A DNA stretch of 64,000 nt from an uncultured delta proteobacterium (lineage in GTDB: Bacteria > Myxococcota > UBA727 > VGSZ01). Location: assembly GCA_963775425.1 (NCBI GenBank), contig CAVZJB010000009.1:272616-336615 (forward strand). The letters run 5' to 3'. Below are positions 40,496-61,778 of the stretch, in pieces. The first letter of the stretch is position 1; each line of letters starts with the position of its first letter. The notes beneath the pieces were generated by a model, which searched no databases, was not told where the DNA came from, and was given only the letters and a program-made list of their open reading frames with translations. The position numbers and the translations under genes are program-made.

Positions 40496-40560
40496 TGACG
40501 GTCCGTCCGGCGGGAAGGAAACGGGCTGATGATCCTCTGCACGCCTTCCCCGGTCGGCCC

Positions 40561-41922: not shown

Positions 41923-41932
41923 AGGCAGCGGC

Positions 41933-43689: not shown

Positions 43690-44846
43690 CGCGCCCGCGT
43701 CGTCGACCGCGCGCGGGGCGCCCGCCCACGGGCCGGTGGGCCGCCGCGCCCGTCACCGCCCTCGTCCTCGCCGTCACCGGCGCGCTCGCGGGCTGCCCCG
43801 CGCCGGCGAGCGAGGATCCGTTCGAGCTCGTCATCGCCGCCAAGAAGGCGGCCGCCGACGTGCGCGCCGACGGCGCCCGCGTCGCCTACACCGACGGCCT
43901 GGAGGCGAGCAGCGACGGCCAGGGGGTCGGGGTCGACGTCGTCGTCGCCGAGCGCGGCGAGGAGATCCTGCGCGCGCCGGCCGACGTCGCCGTGCGCGGG
44001 ATGGCGCTCGGCAAGACCTCCGTGGCCACGCTCGAGCTCGCCGAGGCCGCCGCCGTCAATCAGCACGTGGTCATCCGTCCCCTCGACGGCGGCGACGCCA
44101 TCGATGTCCCTCGCACGGACGCGCCCCTCGCCCTCGCCGCCGTCGACGACGGCGCCGGCTACCTCTGGATCGAAGCGCGCCTCGACGGCACCGACGACAC
44201 CGGCGGCGGCGTCGACGGCCTCTATGTGCTCACGCTCGTCGAGGCCGGCGAGGACGGTGTGGTGACCAGGCGCACGCCCTTCGACGCCGGAGAGATCCGC
44301 GCCCCCGCCGCCGTCCTCGAGCTGTTCCCGCGCCCCTTCGGCGTGCTCGTCGCCGGTGACGACGTCTACTTCGGCTGGGACTCCGACCTCTGCCGCGGCG
44401 GCTCCGTGCTCTACCGCGTGAGCCGCGCCGACGGCCACGGCGTCGCGGAGTGGCGCGGGCGCGTCGCCGCCGTCGGCCCCGTCGACGGCACGACGTGCGA
44501 GTGCGACACCACCGTCGCCGACAACGTCACGGACCGCGGCCAGGCCGTCGCGCTGGACGCGGGGACACCGGTGGTGGTGGGCGGTGTCTTCGACTGCGCC
44601 TCCGTGAGCGCGGAGCGCGGCTTCGTGCGTGACGGCGAGGACAGCGCCGAGGTCGAAGACGCGCTCCGCTTCGCGGGCTTCTCGTCGAGCGGCGTCACGG
44701 CCACCACGCCCACGGGAGTGGTGAAGCTCGTCGGCGTCGGCGAGGGCGCCGTCGTGAACGCCCACTCGCGCGTGACCGGCCTCGCGGTGGACGGCGGCGA
44801 CGTGTTCTTCAGCCTCGAGGACGGCGTCTACCGCCTCACGCCGTGA
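43686..44846 (+). CDS. lipoprotein of unknown function
   Basis: GTG start overlapping the upstream stop (GTGA). RPRRRPRAGR n-region, VTALVLAVTGALAGC lipobox. High GC3. Confidence 0.55.
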   Translation: MTRPRRRPRAGRPPTGRWAAAPVTALVLAVTGALAGCPAPASEDPFELVIAAKKAAADVRADGARVAYTDGLEASSDGQGVGVDVVVAERGEEILRAPADVAVRGMALGKTSVATLELAEAAAVNQHVVIRPLDGGDAIDVPRTDAPLALAAVDDGAGYLWIEARLDGTDDTGGGVDGLYVLTLVEAGEDGVVTRRTPFDAGEIRAPAAVLELFPRPFGVLVAGDDVYFGWDSDLCRGGSVLYRVSRADGHGVAEWRGRVAAVGPVDGTTCECDTTVADNVTDRGQAVALDAGTPVVVGGVFDCASVSAERGFVRDGEDSAEVEDALRFAGFSSSGVTATTPTGVVKLVGVGEGAVVNAHSRVTGLAVDGGDVFFSLEDGVYRLTP

Positions 44847-44906
44847 CGCGGCGGTCCGGCCGCCGTTGACCGCGAGCGCCCGGCGCGGTCTCACTGCACC
44901 CAGGGC

Positions 44907-45707
44907 ATGCGCTTCTTCAAGATCACCCGCGAGATCCTGCCGCGCTGGCAGGAGAAGCTCGAGGCGCTCGAGCAACTGAGCGTCTATCCCCTCGGCGCCG
45001 ACGCCTTTCGCCTCACGCACGGCGCGGACTACTTCGCGTTCTTCGAGCGCATGGGCGAGGTCCACTACTACGCGATCGAGGAGGGCGGCGCGCTCGCCGC
45101 GGTCGCTTGCGGCGTGTTGCGGCCGGCGTCGGTGCGGGCGCCGCGTCGCTGGTACGCCGCGGACCTGAAGGTGCACCCGGCCTTTCGTGGGAGACACCTG
45201 CCGATCACGCTGCTCCGCCGCGCGTTCCTCCAAAACTGGCTCCGCTGCGGGCGCGGGTACGCGGTGGCGATGGACCCGTCCGACGGGCGCGTGCCTCCGG
45301 GGGTGCGGCTGATGGCGCACTTCAAGTGGATCCCGATGTCATTGATGGCGCTCGCCAAGATCGACGTCTACGCCGCCGACGAGCACGGGATGAAGCGCGC
45401 CGCGCCGCTCATCGCGCGTGGAGGCGTGCGGCCTCGATACGTATCGCTCGCAGGGGTCAAGGACCTCGTGCTCGAGAGCTCCAAGGCGCCGCTCGATCTT
45501 CTTCACGTGTCGTTTGCGCCCACCGGCGACGACCGGGTCTACGAGGCGCCGCAACGCGGGGCCACGCACATGTGGTGCGTGCCACGTGAGCACGCGCTGG
45601 CCGGCGCGCTCGCCGCCGAGGGCTTCACGCCCACGGCGAGCGCGACGCTCTTGCACCACCGGCTCGCGCGTATGGATTGGGCGACGCTCGAGACCTGCGA
45701 GATCTGA
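44907..45707 (+). CDS. GNAT-fold acyl-CoA N-acyltransferase-like protein
   Basis: YAADLKVHPAFRGRHL resembles GNAT motif A. 266 aa. Confidence 0.45.
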   Translation: MRFFKITREILPRWQEKLEALEQLSVYPLGADAFRLTHGADYFAFFERMGEVHYYAIEEGGALAAVACGVLRPASVRAPRRWYAADLKVHPAFRGRHLPITLLRRAFLQNWLRCGRGYAVAMDPSDGRVPPGVRLMAHFKWIPMSLMALAKIDVYAADEHGMKRAAPLIARGGVRPRYVSLAGVKDLVLESSKAPLDLLHVSFAPTGDDRVYEAPQRGATHMWCVPREHALAGALAAEGFTPTASATLLHHRLARMDWATLETCEI

Positions 45708-45709
45708 AC

Positions 45710-47662
45710 GTGTGCGGCATCGTCGCCGTCCTGCGCCTCGGCGAGCGTCCGCTGCCCGGGGACGACGCGGTACGCGCGATGACCCGAGCCATCGCTCACC
45801 GCGGCCCCGACGGCGAAGGCTTCCATCGCGACGACGACGTCGCGCTCGGCGTGGTGCGGCTGGCGGTCGTCGACGTCGGGCACGGGCGGCAGCCGGCGCG
45901 CGGCTGCCGCGGCGCCGGGCCCGTGTCCGTCGTGAACGGCGAGCTCTACGAGCACCGCCCGCTGCGCGCGGAGCTCGCCGCGCGGCACGAGATCGTCGAC
46001 GCGTGCGACGCCACGCTGCTGCCGCATTTGTACGAGGACCACGGCGCCAACATGGTGCTGCACATGCACGGCATGTTCGCCTTTGCGCTGTGGGACCGGC
46101 GCGAGCGCACGCTGCTCCTCGGCCGCGACCGCCTCGGCATCAAACCGCTCTTCTTCGCCGTCACGCCCGACTTCCTCGTTGCTGCGTCGGAGGCAAAGGC
46201 GATCTTCGCCTCCGGCCTCGTCCAGCCGCGCATCGATCGCGACGCCGTCGACGACCTCTTCTCCCTGGGGTACCCGTGCCCGCCGCGCACGATGTTCGCC
46301 GGCGTCACTGCGGTGCCCCCGGGGCACACGGTGACGGCTCGCGCGGGCGGCGGCGCACAGCGAGGCCGCGTCGACGCCGCTCGCCGCTACTGGCGCGCGC
46401 CGCTGTCTCCGCCGGCGCACACCGGCCAACGAGGGTCGCCCGCGGGGTCGGCCGCCGACGTCCACGACGCCCTCGCCGCCGCCTTGCGCACGCACCTCGA
46501 CGCCGACGTCCCCGTGGCCACGTGGCTGTCCGGAGGGCTCGACTCGTCCGCGGTCTCGGCGCTCGCGCGCGAGGCCGCCGGCGCGCCGCTCCCCGCGTTC
46601 GCGCTCACGTTCCCGGGAGACCCCGAGGGGCTCGACGAGAGCGCACCCGCGCGCGCCGTCGCCCGCTTCCTCGGCGCGGACCTGGACGAGGTGCCCATGG
46701 GAGCTCCGGCGGCTTCGTTGCTCGAGCGCATGACGTGGCACCTCGAGCTCCCGCTCCTCGTCCCCGGCGCGCTCGGCGGCCTCCTGCTCTCCGAGCGGCA
46801 GCGCGCGCGAGGCTTCAAGGTCACGCTCACCGGCGACGGTGCCGATGAGGTGCTCGGCGGCTACGACGTGTTTCGCGCGAGCCGCGCGCGCCGGCTCCTC
46901 GGGGCGCGCGCGTTCTCCGCCGCCGTCGTCGCGGGCGACGCGCTCGGCCTCCTCTCGCCGCGCGGCATCGGTGCGTTCCTCGCGCAAAACGCCCGCGCGC
47001 CACGGACGGACATCGTCGCCCGCGCGTACGGCGGCGTGCGCCCACCCTGGCTCGAGCAGTGGGCGCTCCTCGACGTCGAGCGCGCGGCGCTCCTGTCGCC
47101 CGACGGCAGGCGCGTGCGCCCGATCGAAGAGGCGCCCGCGGGCTTCGCCGCTTTGGTGCGCGAGGACGCCGTCGCGCTCGATCCGCTCGACGCCGAGATC
47201 GCGCTGGAGCTGGAGACGCGCCTGCCCGCGTGGATCCTGGTCATCGGTGATCGCTCATCGATGGCCCACGGGGTCGAGGCCCGCTTGCCGTTCCTCGACG
47301 ACGACGTCGTGCGCACGCTCCTCGCCGTCCGGCCGGCGCTGAAGATGCGCGGGATGCGCGAGAAGGCCGTGCTGCGCGACGCCGTCGCGGGGCTGCTGCC
47401 GCGCGCCATCGTGCGGCGCAGGAAGCAGCCGTTCATGACGCCGATCGCGCCGTGGTTCTTCCCGCCGGGAGCTACGCCGCCCGCCCTGACGCGCGCGCGG
47501 CTCGAGGACGCCGGGCTGTTCGACGCCGCCGTCGTCGCGCGGCTCCTCACGCGTCTGCACACCTCGCGCCCCGGGACGCTCGAGCGCGTCCGGCTGGAGA
47601 TGGTGCTGATGCTCGTCCTCGGGACGCAGCTCCTGCACGCGTCTTTCGTGGCCAGGGCTTAG
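45710..47662 (+). CDS. asnB: asparagine synthetase (glutamine-hydrolysing), AsnB family
   Basis: GTG-Cys start (V/MCGIVAV) for the N-terminal nucleophile. SGGLDSS PP-loop. Conserved C-terminal synthetase domain. Confidence 0.85.
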   Translation: MCGIVAVLRLGERPLPGDDAVRAMTRAIAHRGPDGEGFHRDDDVALGVVRLAVVDVGHGRQPARGCRGAGPVSVVNGELYEHRPLRAELAARHEIVDACDATLLPHLYEDHGANMVLHMHGMFAFALWDRRERTLLLGRDRLGIKPLFFAVTPDFLVAASEAKAIFASGLVQPRIDRDAVDDLFSLGYPCPPRTMFAGVTAVPPGHTVTARAGGGAQRGRVDAARRYWRAPLSPPAHTGQRGSPAGSAADVHDALAAALRTHLDADVPVATWLSGGLDSSAVSALAREAAGAPLPAFALTFPGDPEGLDESAPARAVARFLGADLDEVPMGAPAASLLERMTWHLELPLLVPGALGGLLLSERQRARGFKVTLTGDGADEVLGGYDVFRASRARRLLGARAFSAAVVAGDALGLLSPRGIGAFLAQNARAPRTDIVARAYGGVRPPWLEQWALLDVERAALLSPDGRRVRPIEEAPAGFAALVREDAVALDPLDAEIALELETRLPAWILVIGDRSSMAHGVEARLPFLDDDVVRTLLAVRPALKMRGMREKAVLRDAVAGLLPRAIVRRRKQPFMTPIAPWFFPPGATPPALTRARLEDAGLFDAAVVARLLTRLHTSRPGTLERVRLEMVLMLVLGTQLLHASFVARA

Positions 47663-47820
47663 GGCCCCCGAATGAACAACTCGATCGCCCTCGCGGCCGA
47701 TCCATCGCCGCTGGCTTCGTTGCTCGTCGGTCACGTGGCGACGGCCACGCTCCCTCCTCGCGCCTCGCCATCGGCGCGCCTCGACCGCGATCATCGACCG
47801 ACTTGTTCATTCGAGGGCCC
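47663..47820. mobile_element. MITE-like non-autonomous element: about 158 bp, 17-18-bp terminal inverted repeats (GGCCCCCGAATGAACAA / TTGTTCATTCGAGGGCCC) flanked by direct TTAG
   Basis: Seen directly between the convergent asnB and NRPS stops. The interior is also partly self-complementary. A TTAG (YTAR) duplication would fit an IS5-family target. Confidence 0.5.
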
Positions 47821-47828
47821 TTAGCCCT

Positions 47829-50800
47829 CTAGATCGCGTCGGCCGCGCCGACGTCGGCCTGCGGGGCGGCGGCGAGGGAGCGCGGACGCGCGGGGCGCTT
47901 GTCGACGACCTCGTCGATGAGGCCCGTGATGCACGTGGCCATGCGCTCGATGTTCTCGCTCCGAAACAGCTCGAGGTGCGAGCCCTTCACCGTGACGACG
48001 TCGATGCGACCCTTGACCCAGCGGCGCCAGCCGTTGGTGGGATCGTCCATGCGCGTGGCCGGCCAGCGGAAGGGATGCTCGGCGACAAAGAGCAGGAGCG
48101 GCGCCGTCTCTCCGTTCTGTTTGGGCATGTACGCGAGCTGGGCCTGCGTGAGGATGGCCCAGATCTGCTTCATGCGATCTTCGCGCTCACGGTCGGCGCC
48201 GTCGACGGCGGGCGCGAGCAGCTCGCCGAGGCCGAGCTTGAAGAGCAAGCGGCGGCGCACGTTGTCGATGCGATCCTTCACGTAGTTGAAGCGGCCCAAG
48301 GCGTCACGCCTGCGCAGCTCCTCGACATGCGCGAGCGCGCGCTCCATGCGCGGAAGCTTCTCGGGATAGCCGGGCGCGAAGGCGTCGAACGCGACGATGG
48401 CGCCGACGTTCTTCCCGCGCCGGCGCAGCCGGTGCGCGAGCTCGTAGGCGACCATGGCCCCGAAGCTGTAGCCGCCGACGACGAGCTGCTGCCCCGACAG
48501 CCCGCGCGCGTCGAGCTCGCGCTCGTAGGCCGCGGCGATCTCCTCGACCGACTCGCGTGGCAGGTCTTCGCCGTCGGCGCCGATGGCGGTGAAGGCGTAG
48601 ACGGGTTGATCGGGCCCGAGCCGCTGCGCGAGCTCGCGAAAGATGAACACCTGGCCGCCCGCGCCGGACACGATGAGCAGCGGCGGGCGCGTCCCGTGCG
48701 CGTTCAACACGACGAGGTGGCTCTGCGGCTCGGACGTCGCGCGCTCGCCGTCGCCGAGGCTCTGCGCGAGCGCGGCGATGGTGGGCTTCGCCAGGATGCG
48801 CGACAGCGGGACGTTGATGCCCAGCTCCTTCTTCAGCCGCGACACCACCACGACCGCGAGCAGCGAGTGGCCGCCCATGTCGTCGAAGAAGTCGTCGTGA
48901 ACACCCACCGGCGCGCGCAAGACGTCGCTCCACAGGGCGACGAGCTTCTCCTCGAGCGGGGTGCGCGGTGGGGACAGCGCGCGCCGCTCGAGGACGAGCG
49001 CCGGATCAGGGAGCGCCGCGCGGTCGAGCTTGCCGTTGGAGGTGACCGGCAGGCGGTCGAGCCGCACCAGGGCCGAAGGCACCATGAAGTCCGGCAGCGC
49101 CGCAGCCACCGCCGCCTTCAACGACGGCGCGTCGAAGGGCTGCGCCGCATGGAGCGGCACGACGTACGCCACCACGGCCTTCGCGCCGGAGGCGTCGGGG
49201 CGCGCGACGCACACGACGTCGCGCACGCCGGGCTGCTTGCGCAGCACGGCTTCGATCTCGCCGAGCTCGACGCGGAAGCCGCGCACCTTCACCTGGAAGT
49301 CGGCGCGCCCGAGGAACTCCATGGTGCCGTCGTCCCAGAAGCGCGCGAGGTCGCCCGTCTTGTAGATGCGCTCGCCCGGGAGGAACGGATCGGGGAGGAA
49401 CCGCTCGGCGGTGAGCTCCTCGCGGTTGAGGTAGCCGTCGGCGAGGCAGAGGCCGCCGATGTAGAGGTCGCCGGCGATGCCGGTGGGCGCCGGGCGCATG
49501 TGGCGATCGAGGATGTAGTAGCGGGCGTTGTCGATGGGACGGCCGTAGGGGATGGAGCGCCACGACGGGTCTACGTGGCCGATGCGGTGGAAGTTCGACC
49601 AGATGGCGGCCTCGGTGGCGCCGCCGAACGACACGGGTTCCACACCCTCGAACACCTCGCGCAGGTGGTCGGGCAGCTTGACCGGGATCCAGTCGCCGGA
49701 CATGAGCGCGAGCCGCAGCGTCGACGACGGCGCGCGCGCCGGAAAGAACGGCGCGAGCCGCGCCAGCGCCGGCGGCGCGGAGTCCCAGATGGTGATGCCG
49801 GGCGCGGTGAGCTTCTTCACCAGGAGCTCCGGCTCGCGCAGCGTCTCCACCGAAGCGATCTCGACGACGGCGCCGGCGCCGAGCGCGCCGAAGACGTCGT
49901 AGACGGACAGGTCGAAGCTCGGGGACGTGACGAACAAGAGCTTGTCGCGCGGGCCGACGCTGAAGGTGCGGTTCACCCACTGCAGCGTGTTCGTCACCGC
50001 GCGGTGCGTGAGCACCACGCCCTTGGGCCTGCCGGTGCTGCCCGACGTGTAGATGGCGTAGCTCACGTCCCTCGAGGCGGCGACGCGCGCGGGCCGGGTG
50101 TCGGGAGCGCCCTGCACGTCCGCGCCGTCGACGCCCAGGATGGGGATGCCCGGCGGCGGCGCGCCGTCGCCGTGGCCCCACGGCAGCGACGACGACGTCA
50201 CCACCGCCACCGCTCGCGCGTCTTCGACCATGAAGCGCGCGCGCTCTTCGGGGTAGCCCGGGTCCACGGGCACATATGCCGCACCGGACTTGGCGATGCC
50301 GATCATCGTGGTGACGAGGTCGAAGTTGCGGTCGAGCAGGAACGCCACGTATTGGCCGGGCTTCACCCCGCGGGCGCGCAGCGCGTGGGCGAGGCGGTTG
50401 GCGCGCCGCTCCACCTCGGCGAAGGTGAGCGTCTCTCCCTCGAATTCCAGGGCGACGTCGTCAGGCCGCGCGTCCACCTGCTCCTCGAAGAGCGTGTGGA
50501 TGAGGATCTCGTCTGAAAACGGCGCGGCCGTGTCGTTCCAGCCGAAGACCTGCCGCTTGCGGGTCTCGTCGTCGAGGAGGTCGACGCGCGCGAGGGGCTT
50601 TTCGGGATCCGCCGCGACCTGCGCGCACACCGCGGAGATCTGCTCCACCAGCGCGCGCACGCGGGGCGTGTCGACCGCGCCTTCGTCGACGACGAGCGAC
50701 GCCTGTCCGCCGCTCAGGCGCAGCGCCAGGACCGCGCCCGGCGGGAGGGCCTCGCCGTCGTCGAGCAGGACGGCCACGCACGACAGCGCGCTCGTCTGGA

Positions 50801-52202
50801 GCGCGCGGCTGGGGGAGAGCACAGGGGTACGCGCGACGAGGTCGACGAGGTAGCCGCCGCGGCGGCGGAGCTCGTCGAGGTCCTTTCGCACCGCGCGCAC
50901 CAGCTCCGCGAAGCCGCGCCCCGCGTCCAGGCCGACGAACAACGGGACGGTGGGCGCCAACAAGGCCGAGGCGGCTTCGAAGCGCTTGCGCACGGGGCCG
51001 TCTACGAGGGCGACGCACAGCTCGTCGCGGTCGCACAGCGTGGCCATGGCGAAGGAGAACGCGGCGGTGGCTGCGGCCTCGATGTCATCGGCGAAGCGCG
51101 AGCGCAGCTCGGGCAGGGGGAGCGAGTGCACCGACGTTTGTCCCGGCGGCCCCGCCGCCGACAAGAACGGCACCGCCGGCGACTCCGCGCGCGCGAGGCG
51201 CTTGACGAAGAACGGCTCGGCCTCGGCGATCTCGCGGGTGATCGCCGCGCGGCCCTCGCGTCCGGGATCGACGATCTGTCCACCGGGCTTGAGTCCCAGG
51301 TAGTGCAGCGCCTCCTCGACGGAGATCTCGACTCCGCTCAGGAGCGACGTCCGCTCCACGCGCAGCGCCCCCTGGGCGCACGCCACCACGAAGGAGCGGG
51401 CGTCGGCCTCGAGGACGGTGCCCGGGCCCCCGCCCGCGCCGGACACCGACGCCTCACGCACGACCACCGCGCGCTCCCCCGCCGACGTCTTGTGCACGAG
51501 CTTGGCGAGGGCGAAGCGGTTGATGTACGGGCCCCAGTCGCAGGCGCGCACGAGCCGGTCGAGCTCGGCGGCCGTCTGGCTCCAGTCGAGAGTGGCCAGG
51601 GCCGCGGGGCGATCGTGACGCGAGAAGATCAGCCGCTCGCCGCCGGGGTTCGTCCCCTTCGGCTGGGGGATGCCCGGCGGCGCGCCGTGCTCGAGCTTCT
51701 CGACGAGAGACTTGAAGGCGTCGAGCGCGAGCGCGGCGTTCTTGATGTTGAGGGAGACGGAGCTCTCGCGCTCCTCGATGTCGACGTCGCGGCGCTCGAG
51801 GATGTCGCCGGTGTCGATGCCGTCGGCGAGGCGATGCCACACCACGGCGTGCGTGCGCTCGCCGCGCAGGAGCGCCCACGCCGAGCCGTGAATGCCCGCG
51901 TAGCGGGGCAGCGGTCCGTCGTGGAAATTGACGGCGTCGATGCGCGCCTTGGTGAAGTGCTCGGCCTTGAGGATGGCGGGGTACGTGATGGACAAGAGGA
52001 CGTCGATGTCGCCGGCGGCCATGAGCTCACCGATGCGCGCGCGCCCGTAGACCGGCACGTCCTTGCCCCGCGCCCACTCGGCGAGGGCCGGGTTGAGCGT
52101 GACGAGGCCGGCGAGGGCGTGCCCCCGCTCCAGGAGGAGCTCGCCGCACGAGACGGCGAGCGGCTCTTCTCCGAGGACGAGGCAGCGAAGGTGCGCGGGC
52201 AC
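47829..52202 (-). CDS. single-module non-ribosomal peptide synthetase: formyltransferase (F) - degenerate C-like region - A - T(PCP) - TE
   Basis: N-terminus Fmt-like (NFHDGPLPRYAGIHGSAWALLRGERTHAVVWHRLADGIDTGDIL). A-domain cores (YTSGSTGRPKGV, FDLSVYD, YKTGDL, GRADFQVKVRGFRVELGEIE, LPVTSNGKLDR). PCP FFDDMGGHSLLAV. TE GYSFGAMVAYE. Confidence 0.9.
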   Translation of the reverse strand: MPAHLRCLVLGEEPLAVSCGELLLERGHALAGLVTLNPALAEWARGKDVPVYGRARIGELMAAGDIDVLLSITYPAILKAEHFTKARIDAVNFHDGPLPRYAGIHGSAWALLRGERTHAVVWHRLADGIDTGDILERRDVDIEERESSVSLNIKNAALALDAFKSLVEKLEHGAPPGIPQPKGTNPGGERLIFSRHDRPAALATLDWSQTAAELDRLVRACDWGPYINRFALAKLVHKTSAGERAVVVREASVSGAGGGPGTVLEADARSFVVACAQGALRVERTSLLSGVEISVEEALHYLGLKPGGQIVDPGREGRAAITREIAEAEPFFVKRLARAESPAVPFLSAAGPPGQTSVHSLPLPELRSRFADDIEAAATAAFSFAMATLCDRDELCVALVDGPVRKRFEAASALLAPTVPLFVGLDAGRGFAELVRAVRKDLDELRRRGGYLVDLVARTPVLSPSRALQTSALSCVAVLLDDGEALPPGAVLALRLSGGQASLVVDEGAVDTPRVRALVEQISAVCAQVAADPEKPLARVDLLDDETRKRQVFGWNDTAAPFSDEILIHTLFEEQVDARPDDVALEFEGETLTFAEVERRANRLAHALRARGVKPGQYVAFLLDRNFDLVTTMIGIAKSGAAYVPVDPGYPEERARFMVEDARAVAVVTSSSLPWGHGDGAPPPGIPILGVDGADVQGAPDTRPARVAASRDVSYAIYTSGSTGRPKGVVLTHRAVTNTLQWVNRTFSVGPRDKLLFVTSPSFDLSVYDVFGALGAGAVVEIASVETLREPELLVKKLTAPGITIWDSAPPALARLAPFFPARAPSSTLRLALMSGDWIPVKLPDHLREVFEGVEPVSFGGATEAAIWSNFHRIGHVDPSWRSIPYGRPIDNARYYILDRHMRPAPTGIAGDLYIGGLCLADGYLNREELTAERFLPDPFLPGERIYKTGDLARFWDDGTMEFLGRADFQVKVRGFRVELGEIEAVLRKQPGVRDVVCVARPDASGAKAVVAYVVPLHAAQPFDAPSLKAAVAAALPDFMVPSALVRLDRLPVTSNGKLDRAALPDPALVLERRALSPPRTPLEEKLVALWSDVLRAPVGVHDDFFDDMGGHSLLAVVVVSRLKKELGINVPLSRILAKPTIAALAQSLGDGERATSEPQSHLVVLNAHGTRPPLLIVSGAGGQVFIFRELAQRLGPDQPVYAFTAIGADGEDLPRESVEEIAAAYERELDARGLSGQQLVVGGYSFGAMVAYELAHRLRRRGKNVGAIVAFDAFAPGYPEKLPRMERALAHVEELRRRDALGRFNYVKDRIDNVRRRLLFKLGLGELLAPAVDGADREREDRMKQIWAILTQAQLAYMPKQNGETAPLLLFVAEHPFRWPATRMDDPTNGWRRWVKGRIDVVTVKGSHLELFRSENIERMATCITGLIDEVVDKRPARPRSLAAAPQADVGAADAI

Positions 52203-52237
52203 GTCGTCGGATTATCACGACCTGCGGCGCCCGCGCA

Positions 52238-54094
52238 TTATCGGTAGCCACGTGCCTGCAGATCGAACATCTCGGCGTAACGACCGCGCTTGCTCATGAG
52301 CGTGTCGTGCGTGCCGCGCTCGACGACCCGGCCCCTCTCGAGCACGACAATCTGATCTGCCGTGCGCACCGTGGAGAACCTGTGCGAAATCACGATGCCG
52401 ATTCGCCCGCGCAACAGACCGCGCAGCTCGGCGAAGATTTCTGCCTCCGCGGCCGGGTCGAGGTTCGCCGTGGGCTCGTCGAGGACCCACACGTCGGCGT
52501 CGCGGTAGATGAGGCGTGCGAGCGCGAGGCGTTGCCATTGGCCCCCGCTCAAGTCGTGCCCTCCCTCGAACAAGCGGCCGACGACGGACCCCAGTCCGTG
52601 CCCGATCTCGTCGACGATGCCGTCCGCGCGCGCGGACGCGAGCGCGCGTTCCGCCCGCTCCCGGTCGAACGGCAAGGAGATCCGGCCGAAGCGCAAGACG
52701 TCCTGCACCTCGAGCTCGTAGGCGCCGTAGTCTTGGAACAGCACCCCGATCCTGTCGCGCAGGCGCTCGGGGTCGGCGGCGCGCGCGTCGACGGCGACGT
52801 CGACGCCGTCGACGGGGCCCGAGAAGACGATCCGCCCCTCGTCGGGATCGAAGAAGCGGCACAGGAGCTTCACCAGGGTGCTCTTGCCGGCGCCGTTTTC
52901 GCCCACCAGCGCGAGGATCTCGCCGGCGCGCACCTCGAGGTCGACGCCGGCGAGCGCGCCCCGCTCCTCGTCGTGGCCCGGGTACCGGAACGACACGTTC
53001 TCGAGCGCCACCCGCGTGATGCGCTCGGGGAGGGCCTTCGCGACGGCCGGGGCGCGAACGGTGGGCTCGATGGCGAGGAAGCTGAAGTAGTCGTCGATGA
53101 ACTGCGCGTGCTCGTCGACGGTGACCAGCGAGCCGAGCGTGGCGCCGAGGTTGCTCGTCAGGGCGGTGAAGGCGCCGAAGATCGCGGCGACGTCGCCGAT
53201 GCTGAGGGTGCCGCGGGTGCCGGCGCCGGCGATGAAGATGTAGGCGACCAACAAGAGCGAGGCGGAGCCGGCGCCGCCGAGGAGGTCGAGGACGTTGGCG
53301 TCGCGGTAGAGCCGCCGCTTTTGCTCGAGCCGATCGAGCGACATGGCCTTGGCCCGGTCGACCACGTGCTGCGCCAGGCCGAACGCGCGCACGTCCTTGG
53401 CGAAGTGCGGCTCCGACGCCACCTGCACCATGTAGTCGTGCTCGCGCTCGCGGCGGGTGGTGCGCCAGAAGAGCTCGTAGAAGCGGCGGTTGGTGCGGAG
53501 CTTCATCAACGCCACCGGCAGCACGGAGAGCACGCCGAGGGGGACGAGCCGCGCGTCCAGGACGAACAGCGCGGAGCACAGGGTGACGAGCGTGATCGTC
53601 GACGAGAAGATGTGGATGAGCGTGAGCGTGAGGTTGTACGGGCGCCAGCCCACGTCGGCGCGGGCGCGCTGCAGCCTGTCGTGCCACGCGGGGTCGTCGA
53701 GGAGCGCGAGGTCGGCGGTGGCGACGTGCAGGAGGAACTTCTTGTGGGCGGACATCCAGACGCGGTCGGAGAACACGTCGTGGACGCGCCCGGTGAACGC
53801 CTGCAGCGATTGATTGAGGACGGCGAGGCCGCCGAGCGCGAGCACCGGGAAGAGCACCCGGTGATCCCGCCACGACGACGGGTGCGCCGCGATGCCGTCG
53901 ATGAGCCTGCCCGTGGCGAGGAGCGTCAGCGGCGTCAGCACGGCGCTCACCACGGTGAGCGCGAGGACGGTGCCCATCTGCCGCGGCGCCGCCTCCCAGG
54001 CGAGCGCCAGCGTGGCGCGCACGTTCCGCCAGATGCGCGCGGGTCGCGGCAGCATCTTGCGCACGGGCGGCGTCTCCTGGGCAGGCGCGGTCAT
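52238..54094 (-). CDS. ABC transporter, fused permease/ATP-binding exporter (MsbA/ABCB-type)
   Basis: Six-TM N-terminal half. Walker A GENGAGKST, signature LSGGQWQRLALAR, Walker B VWVLDEPT. The upstream Arg-rich part of the 951-aa ORF is rejected. Confidence 0.85.
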   Translation of the reverse strand: MTAPAQETPPVRKMLPRPARIWRNVRATLALAWEAAPRQMGTVLALTVVSAVLTPLTLLATGRLIDGIAAHPSSWRDHRVLFPVLALGGLAVLNQSLQAFTGRVHDVFSDRVWMSAHKKFLLHVATADLALLDDPAWHDRLQRARADVGWRPYNLTLTLIHIFSSTITLVTLCSALFVLDARLVPLGVLSVLPVALMKLRTNRRFYELFWRTTRREREHDYMVQVASEPHFAKDVRAFGLAQHVVDRAKAMSLDRLEQKRRLYRDANVLDLLGGAGSASLLLVAYIFIAGAGTRGTLSIGDVAAIFGAFTALTSNLGATLGSLVTVDEHAQFIDDYFSFLAIEPTVRAPAVAKALPERITRVALENVSFRYPGHDEERGALAGVDLEVRAGEILALVGENGAGKSTLVKLLCRFFDPDEGRIVFSGPVDGVDVAVDARAADPERLRDRIGVLFQDYGAYELEVQDVLRFGRISLPFDRERAERALASARADGIVDEIGHGLGSVVGRLFEGGHDLSGGQWQRLALARLIYRDADVWVLDEPTANLDPAAEAEIFAELRGLLRGRIGIVISHRFSTVRTADQIVVLERGRVVERGTHDTLMSKRGRYAEMFDLQARGYR

Positions 54095-55056
54095 CAATAT
54101 CCCGCGGCGACGTCGACCACGCCGAGGAGCGGCTCCCGCGCGGCGTAGCGGCGGACGTTGTCGCGCACGCGCTCCTTCAGGAGCGGCACCGCCATCTCGG
54201 GCGTGTTCCCGACGTGCGGCGTGATGACGCAGCGCTCGCTGCGCCACAGGGGGTGATCCTCCGGGAGCGGCTCGGGATCGGTGACGTCGAGCGCGGCGCC
54301 GCCGATGACGCCGCGCGCGAGCGCGTCGACGAGGGCGCCGGTGTCGACGAGGGCGCCGCGCGCGACGTTCACGAGCCAGGCGTGCCGGGGCATGCACGCG
54401 AGCTCCGCGGCGCCGATCATCCCCCGCGTCTCCGGCGTCAGCGCCGCGGCGAGGAACACGACGTCCGCCCCGGCGAACGCCTCGCGCCGCGCTTCGAACG
54501 TCACCGTCCGCACCAGACCGTCGCCGCCGGCGAACGGGACGCTCCGGCGCCTGACGACGGTGAGCGCGCAGCGAAACGGCGCCAGCAGCGCGACCAGGCT
54601 CCGGGCGATGCCGCCGGCGCCGACGATGACGACCTTCCCGCCGAGGAGCGAGAGCCCATCCGCGGGCCCGCCGTTCGGCCGCACCCAGGAGCGCGCGAGC
54701 GCGCGTGCCTTCAGGTTGCGCAGCCCGGCGAGCGCCAGGGCGAGCGCGTGCTCGGCGACGGGGGCGGCGTACACGCCCTGTCCCGCGGTGAAGCGGTGGT
54801 TGTCGTCGAGGACGCTGAGGAACGGCTCGATGCCCGCCCACGGCAACTGCACCCAGCGGATGTTGTCGTGCAGATCGAGGAGGGCGCGCAGGTCGGCGGC
54901 CCCCGTCGAGCTCGCCCAGACGAGACCCTCGGCGTCCTCGGGGGAAGCGAGCGCGGCGCCGCCTTCGACGACGGCGTCCTCGAGGAACGGGCGCACGCCC
55001 TTCGGCGCCACGCAGACCTTCAGCGCGCTCACGGCGCCGATGATGCACGGCGCCAC
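54094..55056 (-). CDS. D-isomer-specific 2-hydroxyacid dehydrogenase (NAD-binding)
   Basis: VGAGGIARSLV dinucleotide fold. Catalytic R..E..H pattern (ARG..VD, PHVGNTPE). 1-nt stop/start overlap (TGATG) with the ABC gene. Confidence 0.8.
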   Translation of the reverse strand: MAPCIIGAVSALKVCVAPKGVRPFLEDAVVEGGAALASPEDAEGLVWASSTGAADLRALLDLHDNIRWVQLPWAGIEPFLSVLDDNHRFTAGQGVYAAPVAEHALALALAGLRNLKARALARSWVRPNGGPADGLSLLGGKVVIVGAGGIARSLVALLAPFRCALTVVRRRSVPFAGGDGLVRTVTFEARREAFAGADVVFLAAALTPETRGMIGAAELACMPRHAWLVNVARGALVDTGALVDALARGVIGGAALDVTDPEPLPEDHPLWRSERCVITPHVGNTPEMAVPLLKERVRDNVRRYAAREPLLGVVDVAAGY

Positions 55057-55138
55057 CGGCCGCGGGAAGCGCGGAAGCGAAAGCGCGCCCCACGGGGGGC
55101 GCGCGCAGATCAGCGACCGGAGGGAGCGGCCGCGCAGA

Positions 55139-57064
55139 TCACAGGGTCTTGAGGAACGCGACGAGGTCGGCCTTGTCCTGGAAGGACAGGTTGGAGCCGT
55201 GGCCCATCTTGTCGGTGGCCACCAGGCGCTCGACGACGTCCTCGAGCGTGGCCGCGGAGCCGTCGTGCAGGTACGGCGCGCTCTCGATGAGCCCGTGCAG
55301 CACCGGCGTGGCGAACTCCGAGGACCAATCGAGGTTGTCGCCGCCGGTGCCGACGCTGTGGGTGAGGTTGTCGGTGAAGGCGTCGCCGGCGTGGCACTGG
55401 CCGCAGCCGGCGCTGCCGTAGAACAGCTCCTCGCCGTGGGCGACGGCCTGCGCGTCGAGGCCGCTCGGCGGCATGGGTGCCGGGATCTGGTCGAGGAATT
55501 TGCCGACCTTGTTCATGGCGGTGGCGTCGAGGCCGTTGCCGCCCATGCGGCCCACGATGGTGACGTCGCTGATGCCGGCCATGTTCGGCACGCTCTGATC
55601 CCAGTGGAAGGGCTCGGTGCCGAGGATGCCGCCCCACAGCGCGGGCGCGTTGCGCGGGCCCTCGGCGAAGTGCCAGGTGGTGCCGTCGGGGCCGCCGCCC
55701 GGGTGGCAGGAGTCGCAGGAGATGGCGCCGAACTTCGTGAGGTCGTCGTTGACGCTGTAGAAGAGCACGCGGCCCTCACGCACGTCGGCGGGCAGCACGG
55801 GCGCCGCAACGGTGAACGTGTTGTCGACGGAGATCTTCTTGAGCGCGCCGGCGCTGCCCCCGGCGTAGCGAGACTTGGCCGAGGCGTCGGCCGGCACCGC
55901 GAAGCTCGAGATGGTGTCGTCGAAGGCGTTGTAGACGTACGCCGTGGTCCCGTCGGGGGAGACCTGGATGGACTCGACGCCGACCTTCAGCGGCACCACC
56001 GCGACGATGGACGGCTCGCCCTCGCCGATCACCGGCCGGCGCACGATGACGTTGCCCGAGCCGCGCGCGACCACGAGCTGGAGCTTGCCGCCGTCGACGG
56101 TGGCGATCTCCTGCGGCCCGTTGAAGGTCTCGTCGTGCAGGAGGTTGCGGTTGAGCGCGTCGACCACGGGCGCGGCGTCACCGGCGTGCTCGGGGGCGCT
56201 GCCGTTGGCCTCCTCGAGGGGCCGGTTCTCGTCGGACAAGAGCGAGCCCGACGCCGGGTCCACGCGGCTGACGGCCGGGTTCACCGCCGGGTAGCCCGTG
56301 GGGCCGTCGACGTAATACGTGACCGAGGGCTGACCGGCGAAGTTGGTGCCGCCGAGGAACTGGGCCGGGTCGTTGTTGCACTCGACGTGGGGGACGACGA
56401 CGCCGTCGCCGTCCGCGCTCGCGGTGATGCTCCCCATCTGGTTGGGGAAGAAGAACTGCTTGGAGGGCAGGTGCATGTCGACGTCGGCCGCGACGTTGTC
56501 GCCGTCGATGATGGACACGTAGCCCGCGGTGAAGTGGGTGACGGCGACGCGGCCGTCCTCGAGGCGCACGATGCCGCGCGGGTCGCCGTGGTGGAGCGTG
56601 ATGCGCGAAGCGACGCGCGTCGGATCCGCGAGGTCGATGCGCGCGAGGTCGCCCTCGCCGGCGACGGCGACGAGCACGGCGTGACCGACCTGAACGAGGC
56701 CGAAGGGATCGCTGCCGACGTCGGCGGTGCCGTCCACGGTGCCCTTCTCGACGTTCACCACCGAGACGGTGCCGGCGTAGCGCGCGCTCACGGCGACGCG
56801 GCCGTCGTCGAGGACGGTGAGGCGGTGGGGATACCCGGGCACCGCGACCTCGCCGAGCTTGGCGCCGCTGTGGGCGTCGACGGCGCGCACCAGGTCATGG
56901 TCGGCGAGGGCGACGTAGAGAGTCTTTCCGTCCTTGGAGATCTGCATGCGGCCGGTCTGCGGCGCGCTCGCCGGACCGATCTTCACGTCGGGCTCGCAGC
57001 CCGATGCCAGCGAGAGGGAGAGCAGCGCGATGGGTACGGCGACGGCGAGGTGTCGAACGAGCAT
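55139..57064 (-). CDS. lipoprotein: beta-propeller (YVTN-type repeats) fused to C-terminal di-haem cytochrome c peroxidase-like domain
   Basis: Lipobox LSLASGC. Repeated LYVA / VAVS / VSVVNV beta-propeller strands. Two CxxCH motifs (CDSCHPG, CGQCHAG) about 90 aa apart. Confidence 0.7.
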   Translation of the reverse strand: MLVRHLAVAVPIALLSLSLASGCEPDVKIGPASAPQTGRMQISKDGKTLYVALADHDLVRAVDAHSGAKLGEVAVPGYPHRLTVLDDGRVAVSARYAGTVSVVNVEKGTVDGTADVGSDPFGLVQVGHAVLVAVAGEGDLARIDLADPTRVASRITLHHGDPRGIVRLEDGRVAVTHFTAGYVSIIDGDNVAADVDMHLPSKQFFFPNQMGSITASADGDGVVVPHVECNNDPAQFLGGTNFAGQPSVTYYVDGPTGYPAVNPAVSRVDPASGSLLSDENRPLEEANGSAPEHAGDAAPVVDALNRNLLHDETFNGPQEIATVDGGKLQLVVARGSGNVIVRRPVIGEGEPSIVAVVPLKVGVESIQVSPDGTTAYVYNAFDDTISSFAVPADASAKSRYAGGSAGALKKISVDNTFTVAAPVLPADVREGRVLFYSVNDDLTKFGAISCDSCHPGGGPDGTTWHFAEGPRNAPALWGGILGTEPFHWDQSVPNMAGISDVTIVGRMGGNGLDATAMNKVGKFLDQIPAPMPPSGLDAQAVAHGEELFYGSAGCGQCHAGDAFTDNLTHSVGTGGDNLDWSSEFATPVLHGLIESAPYLHDGSAATLEDVVERLVATDKMGHGSNLSFQDKADLVAFLKTL

Positions 57065-57331: not shown

Positions 57332-58552
57332 TCAGTCCGCCTGCGGCGGTTCCTCTTCGCTCGCCCGCCGCGTGCGCACCCAGGCGTCGGAGCGCTTCCA
57401 GGGACGGGCGACCACGAGCTTCCACAAGACGTACGCCGGCGCCGTCAGCAGAGCGAAGAGGCCGGCGACGCCGGTGCCGGAGAACGCCACGCCGCGCAGG
57501 ACGTAGGCCGCGAGCGACAGCGTCGACAGCGCCCACAGCGGCCACGCCGGCGACGGCCCGCCGGCGACGAAGACGTGGGCGCCCTCGACGGCGAGGCCGG
57601 CGACGACGACGAGCGCGGGGTACGAGATCGGCGGGACCATGAGGTCGCAGGCGAGATTGAAGAGCAGCAGCGAGCGCTGCGCCACCGCCGCCTTCAGCAC
57701 GCGCGGGAGGAGCGTGCGCATCAGGCCGAAGCGGCCGCCCTCCCAGCGGCGCCGCTGCGACAGCGCGGTCCCGGCGCTCACCGGCGCGTCGGAGCGGATC
57801 CACGTCTCCGGAGCGAACGCCACGCGGACGCCGTTCATCCCGAGCCGCACGCCGTACTCGACGTCCTCGACGACGCCGTACACCTCGTGCGGCACGCGCT
57901 CGAGGCACTCCCGTGAAAAGGCCATGCCCGTGCCGCGCAGCCCGACCGAGAGGCCGAGCCGCTCGCGCCCGAGCGAGCGCACGCCGTTGATCATCGCCAT
58001 CGCGATGGCCTGCAGGCGCGGCCGCCAGCCCGCGCCCGGGTTCTTCACGGCGTTTTCGACCTGCATCGCGAGGTCGCCGGCGACCACGCGGGCGCCCACC
58101 GCGCGCCAGAGGTTGCCGGCGACGATGGTGTCGGCGTCGACGACGATGACGCCCTCGACGCGCTCGTCGCCCTCGAGCGCCAGCGCGTGCGCGAACGCGG
58201 CCTCGAGCGCGTAGCCCTTGCCGCGGCGCACGTCGTCCCTGCGCTCGAGCACGCGGGCGCCGGCCTCGCGGGCGAGGGTGGCGGTGTCGTCGGTGCAGTT
58301 GTCGGCGACGACGAGGACGATCTTCTTGTCCGCGGGCGCGTCCGCGGCGAGCAGGCTCTTCACCGTGGCCGCGATGCCGTCCTTCTCGTTGTGCGCCGGC
58401 ACCACGCAGACGAGGCGCGGCGTGTCTGCGTCGGCGGGGGCCGGCGGAGGCCGCTTGCGCCACGACAGGAGCGTGAGGAACCCGAGGTACAGCCACACCG
58501 GCAACACGGCGACGGCGAGCACCCACGAGAGGACCTCGAGCGCCGCCGGCAT
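57332..58552 (-). CDS. family 2 glycosyltransferase, membrane-integrated (processive GT2-like)
   Basis: CVVPAHNE, VVADNCTDDT, VVDADT (DxD) motifs. N- and C-terminal TM segments. Start MPAAL is residue 19 of ORF 57332..58606. Confidence 0.75.
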   Translation of the reverse strand: MPAALEVLSWVLAVAVLPVWLYLGFLTLLSWRKRPPPAPADADTPRLVCVVPAHNEKDGIAATVKSLLAADAPADKKIVLVVADNCTDDTATLAREAGARVLERRDDVRRGKGYALEAAFAHALALEGDERVEGVIVVDADTIVAGNLWRAVGARVVAGDLAMQVENAVKNPGAGWRPRLQAIAMAMINGVRSLGRERLGLSVGLRGTGMAFSRECLERVPHEVYGVVEDVEYGVRLGMNGVRVAFAPETWIRSDAPVSAGTALSQRRRWEGGRFGLMRTLLPRVLKAAVAQRSLLLFNLACDLMVPPISYPALVVVAGLAVEGAHVFVAGGPSPAWPLWALSTLSLAAYVLRGVAFSGTGVAGLFALLTAPAYVLWKLVVARPWKRSDAWVRTRRASEEEPPQAD

Positions 58553-58599
58553 CACCGCACGTTCTCGTCGAGGCCGTGTGCGCGCCGCATGGCGGGAGC

Positions 58600-59721
58600 A
58601 TGCCATCGGCCGGCGCGGCGCGGAAACGAGAAGCGCGCGGTGTCCGCGACGGCGGCGGGGCGTCGGGCACGGCGTGGTACGCTCGCGCGGTGGGGCACGG
58701 CACCGTCGTCGCGATCGTGGCCGTCGTCGTCGCCGGCGAGGGCTGCGCGGGCTGCAACGGCACGTTCACCCTGTCGTGCGCCGCCTCCACCGACTGCCCC
58801 GACGGCCTGTCCTGCGCCCCCGACGACATCTGCCGCCCCCATGACGCCGGCTCCGGCGACGGCGGCCCCCCCGTCGACACAGGCCCCACGGGCGACGGCG
58901 GCTCCCCCGGCGACGGCGGCCCCGTCGACGGCGGGCCCCCCGTCGACGGCGGCGAGGGCGAGGGAGAAGGAGAGGGCGAGGGGGAAGGCGAGCAGAGCGC
59001 CGCGAGCTGCGCCGCCGCGCTCGCCGCCGACCCGGCCGCGCCGAGCGGCATCTATCGCATCGGCGGCGCCGGCGTCGAGTGCGACATGACCACAGCGGGC
59101 GGCGGCTGGGCGCTCTTGTTCCGCTTCGACGCGCAGACGGACGACTGCCCCGCGGGGCTCGTCCGCGACGCCGCCAGCGGGGGCTGCGGACGCCCGCTGG
59201 ACGCGGCGCAGACGTCGCTGTTCCTGCCCGCGCCCGAGCCCTTCACGGAGCTGCGCGGCGAGGTCCGCGCGCTCGGCTTCGGCTCGCCCGACGCGTTCTT
59301 CGACACCGCGCCCACCATCGACGGCAACTACGGCGACGGCATCAGCTTCACCGTGGACTCGCCGCGCGTCCACGTCTTCACCCTCGCCCACGCCATCGCC
59401 GACGGCGCGAGCGGGTTCACCGTCCATCGCTGTCCGTGCGCGGGCGGAGATCCCCCGCCGGGCTTCGTCGGCACCGCCTACCTCTGCGAGGCGGCCACCA
59501 CCGCGTTCGTCGGCGGCGCGCGCACGCTCGACACCACCGACGTCCTGTGGGACGGGGCCGATCTCTTCCCGGGATGCGAAGGCGCGCCCGAGTCCGCGCC
59601 CGACTTCCAGGTCGCGCTCGCGGCCGAGGACCCCGGCCCCGTCGAGTTGCGCATCCTCCACAACGAGGTGAGCAGCGACGAGGACACGTACATCACCCGC
59701 GCGGAGCTCTGGGTGCGCTGA
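58600..59721 (+). CDS. secreted protein with (GE)n linker and fibrinogen-related-like domain
   Basis: Signal VVAIVAVVVAGEGCAGC. GGEGEGEGEGEGEGEQ linker. IYRIGGAGVECDMTTAGGGWALLFRF resembles the FReD core (YCDM.TDGGGWTV). Start ambiguous (58576/58600/58693). Confidence 0.55.
   Translation: MPSAGAARKREARGVRDGGGASGTAWYARAVGHGTVVAIVAVVVAGEGCAGCNGTFTLSCAASTDCPDGLSCAPDDICRPHDAGSGDGGPPVDTGPTGDGGSPGDGGPVDGGPPVDGGEGEGEGEGEGEGEQSAASCAAALAADPAAPSGIYRIGGAGVECDMTTAGGGWALLFRFDAQTDDCPAGLVRDAASGGCGRPLDAAQTSLFLPAPEPFTELRGEVRALGFGSPDAFFDTAPTIDGNYGDGISFTVDSPRVHVFTLAHAIADGASGFTVHRCPCAGGDPPPGFVGTAYLCEAATTAFVGGARTLDTTDVLWDGADLFPGCEGAPESAPDFQVALAAEDPGPVELRILHNEVSSDEDTYITRAELWVR
58951..58992. repeat. (GGCGAG)n repeat encoding a GE linker
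   Basis: ggcgagggcgagggagaaggagagggcgagggggaaggcgag seen directly. Confidence 0.5.
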
Positions 59722-59989: not shown

Positions 59990-60366
59990 GGTTGCGGTCG
60001 CCCGGCGCGCGCGACCGCCTCTTCGAACGCCTCGGCGATCGGGTTGAAGGTGCGACGCGCGTCGTCGAGGGCGGCGCGGTCGCCGCGCAACGAGACGTAG
60101 AGCCGGGTGAGAACGAAGCCGTAGACGTCGTCGAGCATGGTGCACAGCTCGGGGGCCTTCGACGGATCGAGCGTGGACCGGAGCTCGTGCACGATGTCGA
60201 TGGCCTTGCGCACCGGCGTCGCCGCCTGCGCGGCGCGACCGAGGGCGAGCTCGCCGTCGGCGAGGAACATCTGCTTGCGCGCACCCGCGAGCAAGAGGAG
60301 CAGCACGCGCTCCTTCGACGCAGTGGCCGTCTGAGTTTCTTGATAGCGCGCCGACGGCAACATCAC
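59986..60366 (-). CDS. fliS: flagellar export chaperone FliS
   Basis: RYQETQTATASKERVLLLLLAGARKQMFLADGELALGRAAQAA...IDIVHELRSTLD matches FliS. ATGA overlap with fliD. Confidence 0.8.
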   Translation of the reverse strand: MMLPSARYQETQTATASKERVLLLLLAGARKQMFLADGELALGRAAQAATPVRKAIDIVHELRSTLDPSKAPELCTMLDDVYGFVLTRLYVSLRGDRAALDDARRTFNPIAEAFEEAVARAGRPQP

Positions 60367-61700: not shown

Positions 61701-61778
61701 GGCGCTCTCCAAGAGGGGTGAACGAGGACGAAGCCGCCGCACGGATCACCCGGGTCCGTGCGGCGGCTTCAGGAGCGC

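Follow-up and report, generated by a model that had tools for sequence, protein, structure and literature searches.

Nonribosomal peptide synthetases (NRPSs) with a formylation domain are a known kind of enzyme, as are NRPSs of a single module. In LgrA, of the linear gramicidin pathway, the first residue has been demonstrated to be formylated with formyl-tetrahydrofolate while bound to the peptidyl carrier protein (PCP) domain (PMC4504003, PMC10510592), and N-formylation of PCP-bound residues is credited to Schoenafinger 2006 in the summaries of that work given by the same two papers. The formyltransferase (F) domain of LgrA comprises 193 residues and contacts the adenylation (A) domain directly, through an interface smaller than the platform formed between condensation (C) and A domains (PMC10510592). 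The F-A-PCP loading modules of OzmO, CongA and the rhizopodin system also start their chains with an N-formyl amino acid (PMC4504003). The present analysis concerns a stretch of 64,000 nucleotides (64 kb, about 72% G+C; hereafter the window) from an uncultured delta proteobacterium of the Myxococcota (contig CAVZJB010000009.1, positions 272,616 to 336,615), which encodes a single-module NRPS whose head joins a full formyltransferase of the Fmt/ArnA type to one half of a C domain (½C). In the literature searched, no description was found of this F-½C head, of its cassette-like exchange with whole C domains, or of the stand-alone family with a cysteine-like specificity code to which the enzyme belongs, and all three appear to be undescribed.

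The synthetase gene lies on the minus strand at 47829-52202, with a GTG start at 52202 and a G+C content at third codon positions (GC3) of 0.94, and it encodes 1457 residues. The domains follow one another as F (residues 1-305, 51288-52202), ½C (residues 320-565, 50508-51245), A (residues 571-1066, 49005-50492), carrier (PCP or T; residues 1078-1151, 48750-48971) and type I thioesterase (TE; residues 1169-1430, 47913-48698). An earlier reading of the letters alone, the original prediction, had proposed this order with a degenerate C-like region in second place, and Pfam, profile comparison and a structural model bear the order out. In Pfam, Formyl_trans_N (PF00551) matches residues 60-155 (45.0 bits, cut-off 26.1), Formyl_trans_C (PF02911) residues 203-297 (35.6 bits, cut-off 21.1), AMP-binding residues 572-925 (257 bits), AMP-binding_C residues 982-1058, PP-binding (PF00550) residues 1085-1147 (55.1 bits) and Thioesterase (PF00975) residues 1174-1422 (86.4 bits); the NCBIfam amino-acid adenylation model TIGR01733 reaches 408.9 bits (cut-off 317.4). 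Residues 298-571 (about 274 residues) have no Pfam match, and the synthetase yields no match to the condensation domain family (PF00668) at E<0.01 and no HHxxxDG motif. About 20 full-length homologues share the architecture at 44-52% identity, mostly from metagenome bins of Myxococcota/Polyangia type. In an alignment of 20 homologues, N92, H94 and D130 of the F domain, D764 and the A10 lysine K1058 of the A domain, S1113 of the carrier motif GGHSL and H1409 of the TE are all invariant, so that the core lysine and the catalytic His and Asp to which the original prediction had drawn attention are in place. The TE also has D1273 and a nucleophile, S1246 in the motif GYSFG, at which about half of the homologues, the window protein included, have serine and the other half cysteine. 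The enzyme stands alone, as had been proposed: no other C, T or TE domain occurs within the 64-kb window, where adenylate formation is otherwise represented by one weakly similar gene alone (12436-14406), and because homologues of the same length lie on about 20 contigs besides, the synthetase is not an assembly fragment.

The F domain is of the Fmt/ArnA kind. A profile of residues 1-570 searched against the PDB matched the ArnA formyltransferase at E 2e-25 and Fmt at E 5e-22 and weaker, across both subdomains, whereas the LgrA F domain was matched at E about 1e-6 and over profile positions 42-155 only. An AlphaFold (AF2) model of the same residues (predicted local distance difference test, pLDDT, 90.3; predicted template modelling score, pTM, 0.87) superposes in Foldseek on Fmt and ArnA with template modelling (TM) scores of 0.8-0.88. 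The catalytic N92, H94 and D130 sit in the invariant motif NxHDGPLPRYAG...LDxG and align with N102, H104 and D140 of ArnA (motif NLH...DAG there), and about 60 further head positions are invariant across the 20 homologues. The claim of an Fmt-like formyltransferase is thus upheld in sequence and fold, with both Pfam subdomains above their cut-offs. For residues 1-305 the N-terminal domain of ArnA and Fmt are therefore the best matches in sequence and fold, with both subdomains and the N-H-D triad; these enzymes differ in being free-standing or fused to a decarboxylase, and in acting on UDP-4-amino-4-deoxy-L-arabinose (UDP-Ara4N) or Met-tRNA. With LgrA the window enzyme shares an N-terminal formyltransferase fold fused to A-PCP, and its A domain matches at 316-324 bits. 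The LgrA F domain, of about 24 kDa, abuts its A domain; that of the window enzyme has about 305 residues including the full C-terminal subdomain of Fmt and ArnA, and about 250 residues of ½C precede the A domain. LgrA is moreover multimodular and ends in a reductase, whereas the window enzyme has one module ending in a TE. By its sequence the window head is hence not a compact F domain of LgrA type and represents a different solution. The OzmO, CongA and rhizopodin modules load glycine and feed polyketide synthases (PKSs), whereas the window enzyme has a cysteine-like code and its own TE.

Of a condensation domain, the segment between F and A comprises the C-terminal lobe and nothing more; the N-terminal lobe and the HHxxxDG motif are absent. 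Its profile matches residues 242-470 of Txo2 at E 8e-9, and also McyB, TycB and SrfA-C, with a C5-like motif included. A separate model (pLDDT 90.3) returned in Foldseek, as its top 50 matches, 50 structures that contain an NRPS C domain or the C-domain-like X-domain of teicoplanin, and it covers about 35-41% of isolated C domains. The lobe ends in the C-A linker motif WNDT (W555, N556). Of the degenerate C-like region of about 300 residues first proposed, the derivation from a C domain and the lack of HHxxxDG hold good, but the region is a C-terminal lobe that travels with F and not a decayed whole domain. Because it has neither N-lobe nor HHxxxDG it cannot catalyse condensation, and its likeliest role would be that of a structural bridge. 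Descent from a heterocyclisation (Cy) domain that made a thiazoline from N-formyl-cysteine was considered and rejected: the profile matches ordinary C domains (Txo1/2, McyB, TycB, BacC, SrfA-C) but not one Cy domain from a library that included BmdB, PchE and FmoA3.

The synthetase is the last gene of a three-gene unit on the minus strand. A D-isomer-specific 2-hydroxyacid dehydrogenase (54094-55056) is followed by an ABC half-transporter of 618 residues with a transmembrane domain (TMD) and a nucleotide-binding domain (NBD) (52238-54094); the TGA of the former and the ATG of the latter overlap by 1 nt as TGATG at 54092-54096, and 35 nt separate the ABC stop at 52238 from the NRPS start at 52202. 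The spacing of the proposed operon is thus exact, and the trio recurs in three metagenomic contigs (L028, L169 and L170) among about 170 related loci, which carry L numbers here. A terminator-like GC hairpin (9 GC pairs, a 4-nt loop and a T-rich tail; 55083-55104, minus strand) separates the dehydrogenase from the di-haem gene next upstream; it is the probable upstream boundary of the operon, and the core transcription unit is accordingly dehydrogenase-ABC-NRPS. No riboswitch, for example one for tetrahydrofolate, was found before the operon at E<=1. The ABC protein has its best match in the MsbA-type model TIGR02203 (247 bits, equivalog cut-off 602) and reaches 18.1 against a cut-off of 28 in the TMD family PF00664, with intact NBD motifs, so that it appears MsbA-like only in architecture and not an MsbA equivalog. 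For the dehydrogenase, 2-Hacid_dh_C (PF02826) scores 147.5 bits (cut-off 25.1), which confirms the family first assigned, and NVARG, DPEP and TPHVG in its translation presumably hold the catalytic Arg, Glu and His. Its closest matches are broad-specificity D-2-hydroxyacid and phenylpyruvate reductases, and McyI is also among its structural relatives; McyI-type 2-hydroxyacid dehydrogenases supply precursors in NRPS clusters. A formate dehydrogenase feeding a formyl pool was considered for this gene and set aside, as the D-2-hydroxyacid model fits better (144.7 against 84.6 bits) and the gene is also kept with an orthologue that has a C head.

That orthologue, in L169, reveals a natural exchange of heads. 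In L169 the genes for a GT2 glycosyltransferase, a di-haem protein, the dehydrogenase, the ABC protein and the NRPS stand in the order of the window (identity to the window 77%, 61%, 66% and 69% for the first four), together with a separate 105-residue open reading frame matching the N-terminus of the window di-haem protein; the NRPS, though, is a C-A-T-TE enzyme with an intact HHILLDG motif. The A, T and TE domains of the window protein are 70, 72 and 72% identical to those of L169, against 58-68, 38-61 and 20-44% for other F-type proteins, whereas its head resembles F-type heads (45-55%) and not the C domain of L169. In a neighbour-joining tree of A-T-TE (without bootstrap) the window protein falls among the C-type proteins, and the F-type proteins form four groups. 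By sliding identity the changeover falls close to residue 540, immediately ahead of the conserved C-A linker motif WNxT, and F and ½C therefore move together. An exchange-unit-condensation (XUC)-like case, in which the C-lobe would stay with the A domain, was rejected: residues 300-540 resemble F-type heads, and L169 becomes at least as similar as these only from about residue 540 onwards. The window and L169 thus present a head swap near the C-A linker, F-½C against a normal C domain, on an orthologous A-T-TE chassis within the same operon. Since dehydrogenase and exporter both accompany the C-head orthologue in L169, neither is tied to formylation.

The two other contigs carry the F-type enzyme. 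L170 has dehydrogenase and ABC genes followed by the start of an F-type NRPS at the contig end and, close by on the opposite strand, genes for GT2 and the di-haem protein (identity to the window: dehydrogenase 66%, ABC 74%, NRPS 63%, GT2 76%, di-haem 67%). L028 has dehydrogenase, ABC and F-type NRPS genes (58% and 57% identity to the window for the first two) with unrelated genes upstream. The 1-nt overlap of dehydrogenase and ABC genes is kept in the window, L169 and L170. In these same three loci the di-haem gene always adjoins the GT2 gene. In the window, the pair comprises a lipoprotein with an N-terminal beta-propeller and a di-haem MauG/MbnH-like peroxidase domain (55139-57064, minus strand) and an EpsU-like membrane GT2 glycosyltransferase (E 5e-108; 57332-58606, minus strand), and in about 10 other loci a member of this GT2 family is encoded no more than 10 kb from an F-head NRPS. 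The pair is a syntenic neighbour whose functional link to the operon is uncertain. The di-haem protein has a LASGC lipobox and CxxCH at residues 450 and 554, and resembles MauG, MbnH and hydrazine synthase gamma.

The original prediction had called for extraction of the A-domain specificity code and its comparison with known codes. The ten Stachelhaus positions were anchored on the FDxS and GxTE motifs and checked by HMMER alignment to solved structures. The motif read as an Asp235-type FDLS is F763-D764-L765-S766, with D764 equivalent to Asp235, as expected of an alpha-amino substrate. The window code is DLYDLSFIWK and the family consensus DLYDMSLIWK; F-type and C-type relatives alike keep the pattern DLYD(M/L)S(L/F)IWK, apart from three members with DLYN(L/M)SLIWK. 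In the pocket segment the nearest A domains are those of the Cy-A modules of FmoA3 (E 8e-33), BmdB (2e-32) and PchE (1e-30), with the motifs SGDWIP and GGATEAxIWS in common; these belong to heterocyclising modules that activate alpha-methyl-serine, cysteine and cysteine, respectively. Such a pocket points to an alpha-amino acid of the cysteine/serine size class, with cysteine the leading guess and serine and 2,3-diaminopropionate further candidates. DLYNLSLIWK and DLYNMSLIWK are among the codes that activate cysteine (PMC12283262). As the window code differs from DLYNLSLIWK by Asn278Asp and Leu322Phe, the substrate is best described as cysteine-like, its identity being predicted from the pocket.

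The head is widespread. Motif scans of reference genomes and metagenomes found it in at least 600 loci, and a hidden Markov model (HMM) of the head retrieved 1669 protein clusters (50% identity) at E<=1e-30, of which the best 150 all span the whole head; some head-bearing clusters are multimodular NRPSs of 3-6 thousand residues with the head at the N-terminus. Most retrieved loci belong to a sister family in which F-½C-A-T has a luciferase-like monooxygenase of about 400 residues inserted in the A domain. Its code is that for glycine, DILQ(L/M)GM(I/V)WK, and downstream lie a KS-AT-KR-DH-ACP-TE PKS, a GT2 of about 340 residues and a phosphopantetheinyl transferase (L014, L034, L040, L049, L053, L054, L072, L073 and about 100 more). 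With its glycine code and downstream PKS, this family looks analogous to the OzmO, CongA and rhizopodin modules. It occurs in cultured strains of Phaeobacter, Ruegeria, Hyphomicrobium, Porticoccus and Myxococcus. Some other F-½C heads stand before codes recognised as those of serine, asparagine and alanine. A domains of MtaG/MelG type likewise contain an inserted monooxygenase and have the glycine code DILQLGMIWK (PMC12283262), so that they and the sister family are alike in both respects, whereas the window enzyme has no insertion and another code. In a Sorangium bin (L008, 2194-9959), the F-C*-A-T protein closest to the window in head and A-T (55% identity; C* being the C-like region) has no TE and is followed by a C-A-T-TE subunit with a TubC docking domain; it is a two-module version of the system. 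Because that protein feeds a docking subunit, and because the head precedes varied codes, F-½C is a general initiation device.

The stand-alone C-A-T-TE family of the Myxococcota (L169 and P0242-P0361) is larger, with at least 81 members. It shares with the window enzyme the A-T-TE chassis, the code (DL(Y/F)D(M/L)SLIWK), the serine/cysteine dimorphism of the TE, the operon partners and a variant fused to GT2, and differs in having a complete LCL-like C domain with HHxxxDG in place of F-½C; it would therefore attach a carrier-bound acyl group instead of formyl. Its members are all named only as "adenylation domain-containing protein". Acinetobacter AB3403 (PDB 4zxh), a solved C-A-T-TE enzyme, has the same layout as this family and is among the TE and C-lobe matches of the window protein. 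The cysteine form of the TE nucleophile motif is GLCAGG, as against GxSxG for serine, and each accounts for about half of both F-type (P0012-P0021) and C-type (P0242-P0361) proteins. The GT2 of about 340 residues adjoins F-head NRPSs in at least 36 loci and is fused to the C-terminus of the TE in F-type P0012 (L003, 10001-15439) and in C-type P0341 (L171, 10001-15370), the two fused domains being 55% identical. An ArnA/ArnC-like pair of formyltransferase and polyprenyl-phosphate GT2 was considered for it and rejected, as this GT2 gives only weak matches to MftF and rhamnosyltransferases. Other genes near the family NRPSs are AMP-binding+Acyl_transf_3 fusions (L001, L002, L088, L132) and genes for Wzy_C, WecG, GT4 and the exosortase-type EpsH/EpsI. 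In a Nannocystaceae bin (L010, 14201-16921), an MBOAT acyltransferase and a 414-residue protein without Pfam match come directly behind an F-type NRPS. A homologue of the 414-residue protein (31% identity) is encoded in the window at 11152-12435, beside the stand-alone AMP-binding enzyme mentioned above and 35 kb from the NRPS.

The reading preferred here, which is held to have about an even chance of being right, is that the one-module NRPS makes an N-formyl amino acid that the TE releases and the ABC protein exports. The A domain would adenylate one small polar amino acid of cysteine/serine type and charge the phosphopantetheine arm of the T domain with it. The Fmt/ArnA-like head would then formylate the alpha-amine of the tethered residue from N10-formyl-tetrahydrofolate, as the LgrA F domain does, while ½C would bridge head and A domain and keep a platform of C-A type. 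The Ser-Asp-His thioesterase would take over the N-formyl-aminoacyl group and release it to water or to a small nucleophile, and the ABC half-transporter would export the product. The dehydrogenase would most likely act on the amino-acid or acceptor side, on a 2-oxo or 2-hydroxy acid serving as precursor or co-substrate, and not on the formyl side. The role of the product as a siderophore or signal, as had been suggested, is pure conjecture.

Several observations weigh against this reading. The role given to the dehydrogenase is a guess. The exporter, which the original prediction had called dedicated, is an operon partner but not strictly dedicated, in that an orthologue with 70% identity stands alone without an NRPS in L168. 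No gene for a phosphopantetheinyl transferase or an MbtH-like protein was found in the window. The Asp278 variants of the code had no match in the searchable literature, and Asp278 is unexplained. In the head, the canonical folate motif HxSLLPxxRG is replaced by HDGPLPRYAG, and with SLLP altered the formyl donor or acceptor could therefore differ; the Fmt-like enzyme LctF makes formyl-CoA, which amounts to formylation of a thiol (PMC11730586). Lastly, the glycosyltransferases (twice fused to the TE), membrane acyltransferases and exopolysaccharide (EPS) genes around family members point to glycan transfer over hydrolysis.

Glycan transfer would make the TE an acyltransferase, analogous to Dlt, whose acceptor for the N-formyl-aminoacyl group is a sugar, glycolipid or exopolysaccharide; the ABC protein would flip or export the conjugate. 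This is the main rival and a serious one, if rather unlikely. Besides the recurrent GT2, fused or adjacent, and the MBOAT, Acyl_transf_3 and EPS-type genes near family members, it can call on the EpsU-like GT2, encoded 5 kb upstream in the window and kept in synteny by L169 and L170, and on the TE of Pks13, an acyltransferase onto trehalose, which is among the PDB relatives of the window TE. The operon itself, however, contains neither a membrane acyltransferase nor a partner GT2; the hairpin sets the GT2/di-haem pair apart from it, the pair lies on the other strand in L170 and is absent from L028, and several family members (L004, L006) have no such neighbours. In a further possibility, considered improbable, the enzyme acts iteratively or in trans, as the loading module of another synthetase elsewhere in the genome or with a TE that oligomerises several N-formyl-aminoacyl units or closes a strained ring. 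The two-module system of L008 is a precedent for loading; the PDB relatives of the TE include oligomerising TEs such as Vlm2; and ObiF and SulM, whose TEs form a beta-lactone and a beta-lactam, have a cysteine nucleophile like that in half of the family. The window enzyme, on the other hand, has its own serine TE, no docking domain and no partner NRPS or PKS domain within 64 kb, and an N-formylated amine cannot be extended at the N-terminus, so that oligomerisation would need a side-chain nucleophile.

The head might also do something other than N-formylate the tethered residue, either as an inactive scaffold or by acting on the pantetheine thiol or, like ArnA, on a sugar amine, and the product would then be something other than an N-formyl amino acid. 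Its greater closeness to ArnA and Fmt than to the sole characterised NRPS F domain, the altered SLLP motif and the thiol chemistry of LctF would fit such a change of target. Catalysis is argued for by the N-H-D triad and the roughly 60 positions invariant in 20 homologues and by the spread of the motif over at least 600 loci; the head is always followed immediately by an A-T pair whose pocket is of Asp235 type, and its counterpart in L169 is a catalytically intact C domain, another N-acylating device. An inactive head or one with a different target is given only a slight chance.

The fusion of a full Fmt-type formyltransferase to half a C domain is a layout that LgrA, on which the paradigm of the formylating module is based, lacks, and the swap of heads on an orthologous chassis in one and the same operon amounts to a natural experiment on the recombination point at the C-A linker. 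A more far-reaching proposal has two parts, and the whole is regarded as unlikely. In the first, F-½C would be an unrecognised, widespread class of initiation head in which a formyltransferase has replaced the donor-side C lobe and which is swapped as a cassette with whole C domains at the C-A linker; in the second, stand-alone enzymes of the form (C or F-½C)-A-T-TE would, together with GT2, make new N-acylated cysteine-like conjugates, for example a formyl-capped low-molecular-weight thiol or an aminoacylated sugar or surface glycan, comparable to mycothiol and bacillithiol or to Dlt. The predicted class of products is N-formyl or N-acyl cysteine-like amino acids, possibly glycosylated. Cultured strains of Phaeobacter, Ruegeria, Hyphomicrobium and Myxococcus carry the head, which opens the chemistry to direct test, and the one-module enzymes are of a size that allows full reconstitution in vitro.

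Beyond the 3' end of the synthetase gene, an intergenic element of 175 bp (47654-47828) fills the gap between two convergent stop codons. It had been called a miniature inverted-repeat transposable element (MITE), and its 34-nt imperfect inverted ends (47654-47687 and 47795-47828, 88% complementary) are real; as for dispersed copies, the 64-kb window holds a single one. Across it lies a plus-strand cassette (40402-47662) that encodes a DUF6986 protein (malate-synthase/HpcH-like), a DUF3419 protein (BtaA-like), a haem-oxygenase-like diiron protein (HDO) of PF14518 (42937-43689), a 386-residue protein without assignment (43686-44846), a GNAT protein and an AsnB-like amidotransferase. The suggestion that cassette and NRPS operon form one biosynthetic cluster finds no support: the DUF6986, DUF3419, HDO, 386-residue and GNAT proteins have no homologue near the approximately 170 related loci, unrelated genes follow the NRPS in L169, and the two loci are convergent. 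AsnB-like genes do occur near related loci, where they are common in EPS regions. An HDO gene near P0003 (L004) was considered as a link and discarded, having no detectable similarity to the window HDO. The cassette may constitute a separate small-molecule pathway; next to it are genes of purine catabolism, namely urate oxidase (38161-39807) and allantoicase/OHCU decarboxylase (35132-36691).

Other features of the window include a segment of 79-81% G+C at 24057-27683, where a minus-strand frame of 1209 codons and an opposite frame of 790 codons both have high GC3. A 381-residue gene, recognised by codon-position G+C and without Pfam match, lies on the plus strand at 58576-59721, divergent from the EpsU-like GT2 gene. 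At 60363-63708 the minus strand carries genes for FliD and two flagellins, and in L170 a FlgM gene adjoins the GT2 gene.

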